Shown here in pieces: positions 40,725 through 42,137 of a stretch of DNA of 64,000 nt. Made by a program: the position numbers and the translations under genes. Every line of letters starts with the position of its first letter. The first letter of the stretch is position 1. This stretch comes from Candidatus Ornithospirochaeta avicola (GTDB lineage Bacteria > Spirochaetota > Spirochaetia > Sphaerochaetales > Sphaerochaetaceae): NCBI GenBank assembly GCA_019113245.1, contig DXHU01000013.1:6965-70964 (forward strand), in the 5' to 3' direction. The notes below the pieces were generated by a model. It made no database searches and was not told the origin of the DNA. It saw nothing but the letters and a program-made list of their open reading frames with translations.

Positions 40725-42137
40725 ATGGCAGGAAACAAGAGCTTGGGCGATGCTAAAGCTGCAAAGAATGATGAGTTCTATACGCGATATGAAGACATCG
40801 AGGCGGAAATGAACGCCTATTACGAATACGACAACAACGTATTCAGGGGAAAGACTGTATTGCTTCCCTGTGATGACCCTGAATGGTCGGAATTCACACG
40901 ATATTTCGCCTCCAACTTCGATAGGTTCGGGCTGAAGAAGCTGATATCCACATCTTATGCGAAGAGTGCAGGATCAAGACAGCTCACTCTTTTCGAGGAG
41001 GAATCCCCACTGTTTGATGAGGATAAACATGATACTCATGGTAAACTTTTTGTCATCGAGAGAAAAGAGGGGGATACAAAGCCTATAGATACGGATAACA
41101 TCGAGTTCAGGGGATATCTTGACGGTGATGGTGATTTCCGTTCAAGAGAAGTGACAAAGCTTAGGGGTGAAGCCGATATCATTATAACGAATCCTCCGTT
41201 TTCACTACTACGAGAATTCTTCGCTTGGATAATGAGAGGAGAGAAGAGGTTCGTCATTCTGGGGAGTATGAATGCGATAACCTACAAAGAGATTTTTCCT
41301 TATCTCAAAGACAATCTGGTTTGGCTTGGGTACAAGTCATTGAACAGCGATATGTATTTCAATGTCACAGAGGAATATCAGCATTGGCTTGTCGAGAACA
41401 AAAAGGAAGGCTCGGCTTATAAGGTGATAAACGGTATCGTAATGGGACGATTGGCTTCCGCTTGCTGGTTTACCAACATCGATCATGGCAAACGTCACGA
41501 GCTCCTTTCCCTCGACACAATGGCTCACAATCTCAAGTTCAATAAGAAGTTGAGGAAGAAATTTCTCGATGAATATGGGAAGCTGGAATACCCTCACTAT
41601 GACAACTATGATGCCATCGAGGTGCCATTTGTTGAGGCAATTCCTTCCGATTACATCCCGACAGGGGACTTGACAAACGACGAGTTTGACATAGAATCCT
41701 TGACAGACAGACAGACAGACAGACAGACAGACAGACAGACAGACAGCTTGAAGTCTGCAATGGCATCATGGGAGTGCCGATCACCTTCCTCGACAAGTAC
41801 AATCCGGAACAGTTCGAAATTCTCGGAATCGCCAATTCTGCACGTTGGATCGGATGGAAATGCCTCACCGTCATCAATGGGCAGAGAATCTACAACAGAC
41901 TGCTTATCCGCAGAAAATCGCAGGTGTAACGGGCTTATGGGAGTACCGATTACCTTCCTCGACAGATATAATCCAGTACAATTCAAGATTATTGGTCTTG
42001 ATCGATATGTAGTAGATAATCCTAAACCTGGTCATCGTTTCACAATATCTGGGCGTGAAACATATGCCCGAATATTGATTCAAAAGAGGAGCAAAGAAAA
42101 TGAAAACAGAACTATATACGGAATGGACGGTAGGTGA
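40725..42137 (+). CDS. EcoRI-like N6-adenine DNA methyltransferase with internal (GACA)11 tract and duplicated C-terminal module
   Basis: 'NDEFYTRYEDIE' N-terminus and 'IIITNPPFSL' catalytic NPPF motif. In the observed frame, residues after the repeat read out of frame through module 1, then in frame through module 2 ('GLMGVPITFLDRYNPVQF'). Confidence 0.8.
   Translation: MAGNKSLGDAKAAKNDEFYTRYEDIEAEMNAYYEYDNNVFRGKTVLLPCDDPEWSEFTRYFASNFDRFGLKKLISTSYAKSAGSRQLTLFEEESPLFDEDKHDTHGKLFVIERKEGDTKPIDTDNIEFRGYLDGDGDFRSREVTKLRGEADIIITNPPFSLLREFFAWIMRGEKRFVILGSMNAITYKEIFPYLKDNLVWLGYKSLNSDMYFNVTEEYQHWLVENKKEGSAYKVINGIVMGRLASACWFTNIDHGKRHELLSLDTMAHNLKFNKKLRKKFLDEYGKLEYPHYDNYDAIEVPFVEAIPSDYIPTGDLTNDEFDIESLTDRQTDRQTDRQTDSLKSAMASWECRSPSSTSTIRNSSKFSESPILHVGSDGNASPSSMGRESTTDCLSAENRRCNGLMGVPITFLDRYNPVQFKIIGLDRYVVDNPKPGHRFTISGRETYARILIQKRSKENENRTIYGMDGR
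41702..41746 (+). repeat. Tetranucleotide simple-sequence repeat (GACA)11+G
   Basis: Counted directly: G at 41702, 41706 ... 41746. Translated as (TDRQ)3TD in the observed frame. Confidence 0.97.

Follow-up and report, generated by a model that had tools for sequence, protein, structure and literature searches.

We analysed a 64,000-nucleotide stretch of DNA from Candidatus Ornithospirochaeta avicola, referred to here as the window, and in particular a methyltransferase gene in it that contains a long GACA repeat. The spirochaete origin, which an initial annotation made from the letters alone had proposed, is confirmed by the neighbouring proteins, as these are identical to NCBI records of this chicken-gut metagenome-assembled genome (MAG). 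The gene is an open reading frame (ORF) of 470 amino acids (aa) on the forward strand (40725-42137). It belongs to the EcoRI family of adenine methyltransferases, matching PF13651 (EcoRI_methylase) with E = 3.5e-104 and 349 bits (cut-off 26.4), with the catalytic motif seen as 'IIITNPPFS'. An exact look-up of the 470-aa product gave no existing record. The gene order at the locus is two helix-turn-helix (HTH) genes, the methyltransferase gene, and a gene for a nuclease with DUF262 (GmrSD_N) and HNH domains.

Inside the methyltransferase ORF, just as the initial annotation had it, lies a (GACA)11.25 tract of 45 nt (41702-41746, forward strand), which begins GACAGACA, ends GACAG and contains no mismatch. 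Tandem Repeats Finder describes it with period 4, 11.2 copies, 100% matches and a score of 90, the maximum for the window, and it is the sole tetranucleotide run of at least four units within the 64 kb. A (GACA)4 probe gave eight overlapping matches, all of them in the tract; from 100 shuffles that preserved dinucleotides, 0.01 would be expected. The tract thus has the make-up of a simple sequence repeat (SSR) of the phase-variable kind, being placed inside an ORF and consisting of 11.25 perfect units of a length that is no multiple of 3. Whatever the frame, (GACA)n is translated into (TDRQ)n, and the tract alone creates no stop.

The tract divides the match to PF13651, with profile positions 2-276 on its 5′ side and positions 277-343 on its 3′ side. 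Upstream is the constant body of the methyltransferase (aa 1-310; 40725-41654, forward strand; profile positions 2-276), which includes the TNPPF catalytic motif and ends in IPSDY. Its identity is 96-98% in L001, L003 and L014 (related loci are referred to by such numbers throughout) and 52-77% across phyla. Body and tract are connected by a 16-aa linker, IPTGDLTNDEFDIESL (41655-41701, forward strand), which is missing from single-module homologues. In the latter, the joint between IPSDY and the module reads 'IPSDYDGVMGVPITF', so linker and tract together are an insertion at exactly that joint, where the initial annotation had also located it.

Downstream of the tract are two copies of the family's C-terminal module, which lie in different frames and match the same part of PF13651. 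Module 1 (LEVCNGIMGVPITFLDKYNPEQFEILGIANSARWIGWKCLTVINGQRIYNRLLIRRKSQV, followed by a stop; 41747-41929, forward strand) matches profile positions 277-303 with E = 2e-11 and is in frame only at 12 or 9 units. Module 2 (GLMGVPITFLDRYNPVQFKIIGLDRYVVDNPKPGHRFTISGRETYARILIQKRSKENEN...; 41931-42137, forward strand) matches positions 278-343 with E = 5e-9 and is in frame with the body as sequenced. Each module starts with 'CNG.MGVPITFLD.YNP.QF.I' and ends with 'Y.R[IL]LI..K'.

We derived the frame states by rebuilding the gene with other numbers of GACA units. With 11 units, as sequenced, module 1 is out of frame and is crossed in its +1 frame as 62 stop-free codons (41745-41930), which join the body to module 2 and give the 470-aa product; the sequenced state is not the 'canonical' one. 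With 12 or 9 units, the product has 402 or 398 aa and module 1 is its C-terminus. With 10 or 13 units, a TGA (41749-41751, forward strand), 5 nt past the tract, ends the protein after 340 or 344 aa; from its sequence this truncated product, which has no conserved 'G.MGVPITF...Y.RI.IR.K' elements, is presumably inactive. The 'QTA*' stop is common to all spirochaete-type loci. The initial annotation had predicted that each unit gained or lost shifts the frame by 1 nt and remodels or cuts short the C-terminus instead of simply turning the protein on and off. The layout of the frames agrees with this, although the annotation overlooked that two complete alternative modules stand in different frames.

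We also noted a sigma-70-like site (TTGACA, 16-nt spacer, TAGAAT; 11 of 12 consensus positions) at 41670-41697 of the forward strand, its 3′ edge 4 nt from the tract. The TTGACA hexamer is found about 30 nt 5′ of the tract in nearly all GACA-type loci, and it coincides with a conserved 'DLT' peptide. The site may be a by-product of coding or an internal promoter for the modules and the nuclease; a promoter and terminator scan of the operon gave counts no higher than in shuffles.

Tract length and frame state among related loci

As a population sample we used contigs carrying members of the 90%-identity cluster of the downstream DUF262-HNH protein. The spirochaete-type loci are metagenome assemblies, and lengths and states are given for complete loci with intact flanks. 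Length polymorphism among related strains, on which the initial annotation had made its proposed switch depend, is present, with tracts ranging from 13 to 97 nt. The module 1 state was found in L116 (13 nt), L001 and L106 (25 nt each), L015 (37 nt) and L003 (97 nt), the module 2 state in the window (45 nt), L006 (57 nt) and L005 (93 nt), and the stop in L014 (17 nt), L105 and L107 (41 nt each) and L004 (65 nt). All three frame states, thus, occur in nature. Wherever the 5′ flank is intact, the state follows the length modulo 3 with no exception: a remainder of 1 gives module 1, of 0 module 2, and of 2 the stop.

Otherwise identical copies differ in tract length, and the reading frame changes with it, as is typical of SSR phase variation. 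L105 and L107 (41 nt) show 0 differences in 2,200 nt of flank from L106 (25 nt), and L014 (17 nt) shows 1 in 2,200 nt from L015 (37 nt); in the group of L003 to L006 (97, 65, 93 and 57 nt, respectively) there is 1 difference in 1,600 nt downstream. We consider it very probable that the tract is a variable frame selector. Tetranucleotide tracts are established substrates of slipped-strand mispairing, and on this basis we infer slippage as the cause of the length change.

The length differences could, alternatively, be artefacts of short-read assembly of metagenomes, in which case the tract would be stable and would encode a flexible TDRQ linker. All the spirochaete-type loci are indeed metagenome-assembled, assemblers have difficulty with long tracts, and the tract is where many contigs break. 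However, tracts short enough to lie within read length (13, 17, 25, 37, 41 and 45 nt) differ too, between identical flanks, and the lengths do not follow multiples of 3 or 12. Coding in three frames downstream would be pointless for a fixed linker. Moreover, the cultured isolates Mobiluncus porci and Bifidobacterium pongonis have a (GA)n version of the arrangement (described below), and database proteins include all three products of that type. An assembly artefact is, thus, exceedingly improbable.

It could also be that the different products arise at the level of RNA or the ribosome, by transcriptional slippage or programmed frameshifting, and not from a heritable change of DNA length. A 2026 preprint describes frameshift suppression on (AG)n in a Mycoplasma mod fragment (10.64898/2026.04.01.715767), and some leakage between frames is conceivable. 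The differences in length were, however, observed directly in DNA and agree with the frame states. GACA repeats are, besides, not a known slippery heptamer. We regard this explanation as very unlikely.

The tract breaks assemblies: about 19 contigs begin in it, 4 contigs of the genome collection end there, and 1 scaffold has an N gap. These breaks and the gap hint at switching within a population, but are only suggestive. A scan of JGI metagenomes with the 3′ junction returned one truncated contig only. The contigs of L016, L018, L019, L022, L115 and L123 start not in the tract but at the conserved 5′ part of module 1 ('GIMGVPITFLDKYNPEQF'), where the likely reason for the break is either the stretch of about 60 nt common to modules 1 and 2 or the co-existence of strains with different modules.

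Several loci have deletions on the 5′ side of the tract, some of which alter the frame and some of which eliminate the conserved IPSDY. In L002 (3568-3652), 77 nt directly 5′ of the tract and part of the tract itself are deleted; we considered L002 as a clean slippage variant of L001 and ruled this out, as the 82-nt alignment gap running from upstream into the tract is a deletion or an assembly error. L013 (2985-3015) has lost the 14-nt GACACAGAATTCTT directly 5′ of the tract, L023 (3380-3410) the coding sequence for IPSDY and the linker, and in L111 (about 2590-2635) the linker is shortened. The sequence beside the tract seems to be easily deleted or easily mis-assembled. In L004 (1-3013), the body of the methyltransferase is cut short beside two genes of the phage-integrase family, with the 65-nt tract, both modules and the nuclease kept; it looks like a disrupted copy of the island.

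Modules, their order and their reading frames

The 310-aa body, searched against one genome per species, gave 407 relatives, of which 80 loci were kept, chosen without regard to their C-terminus. The groups represented are Spirochaetota, Actinomycetota, Bacillota, Bacteroidota, Saccharibacteria and Thermoguttaceae, and gut or rumen is the source of nearly all the loci. A simple repeat (GACA and its rotations, GACC, GA/AG and one poly-G) is present in the C-terminal region of 20 of the 80, and 13 have two or three modules. In addition to these 20, two loci carry CAGAA or ATCAG. L125 and L126 carry (CAGAA)11 at the same joint, with the layout seen in the window. In the Bacillota loci L057, L060, L067, L072, L092 and L096, and in L127 ((ATCAG)11), the repeat lies within the first half-module and three frames are productive, leading to a short closure ('RITPYFRIIIRRK'), to module 1, or by +1 read-through to module 2. 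The 'GDLTNDEFDIESL' of the window's linker is similar to the last part of the half-module ('KDLTYTVEADTIL') found before the tract in Bacillota loci. This similarity suggests that the window type may derive from the three-way form after losing the short closure; such a loss would account for the stop in the window's third frame.

In the (GA)n group, which includes the two cultured isolates, endings of 12-15, 37-40 and 79-87 aa overlap in three frames of one stretch of DNA, each with the family's closing motif, and the three endings are open in five loci at 67-86% DNA identity. The repeat-selected design is family-wide and has arisen with several repeat types. Among plasmid and phage collections we found 92 plasmid and 13 phage records of the family; the best plasmid match has a single module and no repeat. 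A Cys-rich insertion of about 40 aa ('VPCWFDCPKAAQCEW...C...C'), possibly a zinc-binding element, separates IPSDY from the first module in L031 (3430-4400) and in the proteins P0004, P0005, P0011, P0014 and P0061. L031 has three modules in three frames and no perfect repeat above the thresholds applied; its repeat may have decayed.

We extracted every module from all collected loci and counted stops in both alternative frames, defining as internal a module that stands after a repeat and before another module. In the initial set, all 13 distinct internal modules had zero stops in +1, whereas none of 61 distinct terminal modules was open in +1 or +2 (terminal modules have on average 4.6 +1 stops in 82 codons). 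The module that follows is always in the +1 frame of the internal one. With L125 and L127 added, the +1 frame was open in at least 15 of 15 distinct internal modules and in 1 of 63 terminal ones. Within the GATESEG family, internal copies were open in 7/7 cases and terminal copies in 0/4 (1, 2, 4 and 6 stops). A reciprocal control is provided by L127, where the window's two module families stand in the opposite order. The GIANSARW family has 0 stops in +1 where it is internal (window) and 5 where it is terminal (L127), and the GLDRY family has 0 where it is internal (L127) and 3 in each of the two loci where it is terminal (window and L111). Openness follows position, which argues that the reading of module 2 is selected and is not a relic, and we regard module 2 as probably representing a functional state. 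As a further observation, in L120 (1-530) the +1-frame spacer of one copy of the GATESEG module stands before a second copy, which suggests that the module was duplicated in tandem and that three modules are stacked.

These counts bear on a plain ON/OFF switch, in which only the module 1 form would be active, module 2 would be the leftover of an older C-terminus displaced by the tract and module 1, and two of the frames would be OFF. Such a relic would fit with the long low-complexity, low-confidence spacer of the module 2 form and with the overlap between module 2 and the start of the nuclease gene, which resembles an original gene end, and classical mod genes are ON/OFF (PMC5909438, PMC13076061). 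A relic, however, would not impose an open +1 frame that flips when modules swap position. Module 2 is, besides, intact, it comes in five types among the loci, each with close relatives that are the sole module of other enzymes, and the assembled consensus is in the module 2 state in the window, L005 and L006. We, therefore, find plain ON/OFF switching unlikely.

The variable parts of the modules are 13-34% identical among the window, L001, L003 and L014, the loci whose bodies are near-identical. Seven combinations of module pairs are found in spirochaete-type loci, in L111 the module 2 known from the window follows another module 1, and the same module families are the sole module of enzymes in distant phyla. 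A conserved catalytic body with a hypervariable, laterally exchanged segment is the usual mark of a target recognition domain (TRD). Target recognition would, thus, most likely reside in the modules, and judging from this pattern we lean slightly towards the view that they set target specificity. A junction at the module boundary was seen in L112 (1-560), where an unrelated 107-aa HTH gene is joined exactly between modules 1 and 2 ('...KV*/RCNG') to a window-type module 2 and an intact nuclease gene, the methyltransferase body being absent. We set L112 aside as an example of a nuclease without a methyltransferase, the 2-kb contig being either a true recombinant or a chimera.

AlphaFold2 models of both states were of moderate quality (predicted TM-score, pTM, 0.56). 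In the 470-aa product, the linker, repeat and spacer (residues 293-402) had a predicted local distance difference test score (pLDDT) below 50, and with module 2 beta-strands return, at pLDDT 60-72. In the model of P0020, a homologue in the module 1 state, low confidence is confined to the linker.

In the reading we prefer, the tract would be a hypermutable site of slipped-strand mispairing that serves as a three-position frame selector between a constant catalytic body and two stacked alternative C-terminal modules. A remainder of 1 (12 or 9 units) would give the body with module 1; a remainder of 0 (11 units) would give the body, a disordered spacer (module 1 in +1, kept stop-free by selection) and module 2; and a remainder of 2 (10 or 13 units) would give a truncated protein ending at the stop 5 nt past the tract. 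A clonal population would in this way keep yielding cells with methylation specificity A, specificity B or none. In this reading, the module 1 and module 2 forms would both be active, and the nuclease would tolerate or follow the switch. We give a probability of roughly 0.6 to the whole of this reading, namely that the selector has three states (module 1, module 2, truncated) and that methylation specificity is most likely what it toggles. The operon resembles a restriction-modification (RM) system, which makes variation of defence specificity at least as likely a role as control of a regulon (phasevarion).

Several points weigh against the three-state selector. The polymorphism is one between samples, single-clone switching not being part of it, and unit counts for tracts near 100 nt rest on short-read assemblies and may be inexact. 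L002, L013 and L023 changed frame by deletions beside the tract and not by slippage of units. The terminal module of L125 (2732-2986) is also open in +1 over 85 codons, the sole exception among 63, which could be chance or the trace of a lost third module. The module 2 form bears the 62-aa out-of-frame insertion, tolerance of which is an assumption of the model. Finally, Foldseek against the PDB returned generic class I S-adenosylmethionine (SAM)-methyltransferase folds only, with no DNA methyltransferase neighbour, and a sequence search of the PDB gave no homologue, so the module is not placed relative to DNA.

The nuclease partner and its surroundings

The nuclease gene (42100-43266, forward strand; GmrSD_N E = 5e-21, HNH E = 2e-7) follows directly 3′ of the methyltransferase gene, as it does in 70 of the 80 family loci, most of the other ten being truncated contigs. 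PADLOC matched the methyltransferase to MTase_II (E = 2e-78) and the nuclease over its full length to REase_II (E = 1e-78). The locus, thus, has a Type II pairing, with an adjacent methyltransferase and nuclease that match Type II models and HTH genes upstream. The nuclease shares GmrSD_N with Type IV GmrSD enzymes, which join a DUF262 NTPase domain to a DUF1524/His-Me nuclease domain and work alone on modified DNA, but its C-terminus is a classical HNH domain (PF01844) and it is coupled to a methyltransferase.

The last 38 nt of module 2 are also the first 38 nt of the nuclease gene, whereas the stop of module 1 is 171 nt upstream of the nuclease ATG. The nuclease gene has a Shine-Dalgarno sequence of its own (GAGGAG, 42086-42091), so any coupling of its expression to the module 2 stop is speculative. 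This arrangement is relevant to the possibility that the switch is real and the modules do not set sequence specificity, acting instead on stability, oligomerization, or coupling to or expression of the nuclease. It is consistent with such a role that only the module 2 reading ends on the nuclease start, and the recognition role of the region is read from a sequence pattern and not from a structural or biochemical assignment. On the other hand, 35-120 hypervariable, laterally exchanged amino acids on a body conserved at 50-98% are the usual signature of a TRD, the nuclease has its own ribosome-binding site, and the (GA)n and Bacillota types put all three endings before the same nuclease start. 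A role other than specificity is, on balance, rather unlikely.

If the tract selects between specificities, the behaviour of the nuclease requires explanation. Among loci whose module sets are unrelated, the nuclease keeps an identity of 88-91%, and a comparison across loci found no hypervariable block in it that might co-vary with the modules. In L014, L105 and L107, the consensus encodes a truncated methyltransferase alongside an intact nuclease gene. From its conservation across module sets and its persistence beside truncated methyltransferases we infer that the nuclease has no independent matching specificity and that loss of the methyltransferase is tolerated. By analogy, it may depend on the methyltransferase as Res depends on Mod in Type III systems.

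Upstream of the methyltransferase is a gene for an XRE/Cro-type HTH protein of 152 aa (40266-40724, forward strand; HTH_26 E = 1e-12, HTH_3 E = 1e-10), whose stop abuts the methyltransferase ATG. It has a weak PADLOC match to 'Control_protein', stands in the same position in L001, L002, L003, L105 and L111, and is a possible controller protein. The first HTH ORF (228 aa; 39941-40627, forward strand; HTH_3 E = 3.8e-5) overlaps this second HTH gene in another frame. Its equivalents in relatives have 82-90 aa (small HTH genes in L002, L105, L106 and L111), and the 228 aa of the window may be due to an extended ORF or a stop lost in the MAG. The island is flanked by an IS4-family transposase gene (38361-39821, reverse strand; PF01609 E = 4e-29, NCBIfam transpos_IS4_1 E = 8e-52); a transposase is also found at the same place in L002, L003, L105 and L111. 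Together with the differing genomic contexts elsewhere, this flank indicates that the island is mobile.

It is possible, though less likely than not, that these loci represent a widespread, so far undescribed class of gut and rumen RM systems. In such a class, the repeat would be a three-position selector over stacked or overlapping specificity modules, one gene could give up to three productive enzymes, the DNA of the modules would be under dual- or triple-coding selection, and the near-invariant DUF262-HNH nuclease would rely on the methyltransferase or borrow its target specificity from it. If so, Type III-like logic would have been built from Type II-like parts, and the cell could switch, or be OFF, without harm. 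Should specificity be set by the modules, one gene would provide two or three heritable and reversible methylomes per clone with no recombinase, restriction specificities would probably switch as well, and phase-variable epigenetics would extend to a family whose members occur in Spirochaetota, Actinomycetota, Bacillota, Bacteroidota, Saccharibacteria and others. The internal modules are a clean natural case of selection holding a second frame (in the (GA)n group, a third) open across a coding module. The features of most interest are, in our view, this position-dependent dual or triple coding, its spread over gut phyla and the puzzle of a harmless nuclease, that is, how the nuclease stays safe while the methyltransferase changes or is lost. 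As metagenome assemblies break up at these loci and annotation records them as broken genes and small 'EcoRI_methylase' pieces, the loci are systematically missed.

Relation to known phase-variable systems

Phase-variable methylation is described in a 2026 review as either ON/OFF switching or recombination of hsdS (PMC13076061). In the open-access literature (REBASE was not covered) we found no account of an EcoRI-family methyltransferase with frame-stacked modules chosen by a repeat, though an earlier notice is possible. The initial annotation compared the tract with the mod genes of Haemophilus and Neisseria. This analogy holds for the mechanism, slippage of a tetranucleotide repeat, and fails for the family, as the locus combines an EcoRI-family methyltransferase with a DUF262-HNH nuclease and has no Res. 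Type III phasevarions (modA of Haemophilus influenzae, modA/B/D of Neisseria, modM of Moraxella; PMC5909438, PMC1976455) likewise have a tetranucleotide tract in an adenine methyltransferase ORF, length polymorphism between strains, a conserved nuclease partner and a hypervariable recognition region. Their methyltransferase, however, is of the beta class with a central TRD, the partner is the Res helicase-nuclease, the repeat is near the 5′ end and acts ON/OFF only, and alleles vary between strains and not within one gene. The operon described here contains neither Mod nor Res: its methyltransferase belongs to PF13651, with the variable part at the C-terminus, and the partner has DUF262 and HNH domains.

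Repeats of variable unit number inside the ORF of a Type II-class methyltransferase are also known from DCM8/DAM3 of Metamycoplasma hominis, an ON/OFF switch by TA repeats (PMC10305163), and from cj0031 of Campylobacter jejuni, a poly-G ON/OFF switch as cited in PMC13076061. These switches oppose a full-length to a broken protein and involve no alternative modules. In Helicobacter canadensis, homopolymers mediate a general 'C-terminal sequence switching' (PMC2823697), where, as here, a repeat near the 3′ end alters the C-terminus and the protein is kept; the switched parts are short tails, in contrast to stacked homologous domains, with no frame kept by selection and no methyltransferase of the PF13651 family. 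The inverting Type I hsdS shufflons (SpnIII/ivr of Streptococcus pneumoniae and those of Mycoplasma pulmonis; PMC7394358, PMC6265443) resemble the locus in that one locus keeps several silent recognition modules and expresses one stochastically. They rely, however, on a site-specific recombinase and inverted repeats, whereas here there is no recombinase and the choice is made by the reading frame.

The closest functional precedent is provided by the SSRs of Type I hsdS genes. NgoAV alternates between a full-length and a truncated HsdS that differ in specificity, and 'extended' hsdS genes have the structure TRD2a-SSR-TRD2b (PMC7383803). There, a simple repeat between recognition modules changes the modules of the protein, so that specificity is switched and not merely turned off, and the locus described here would do likewise. 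The resemblance is functional only, as no Hsd genes are found in the operon. In Type I systems, the repeat is in the separate specificity subunit of a three-gene system and yields full-length, truncated or extended forms in one frame. In the locus described here, the repeat is in the catalytic EcoRI-family protein itself, the modules lie in different frames, one of them being dual-coding (+1), and up to three outputs are available.

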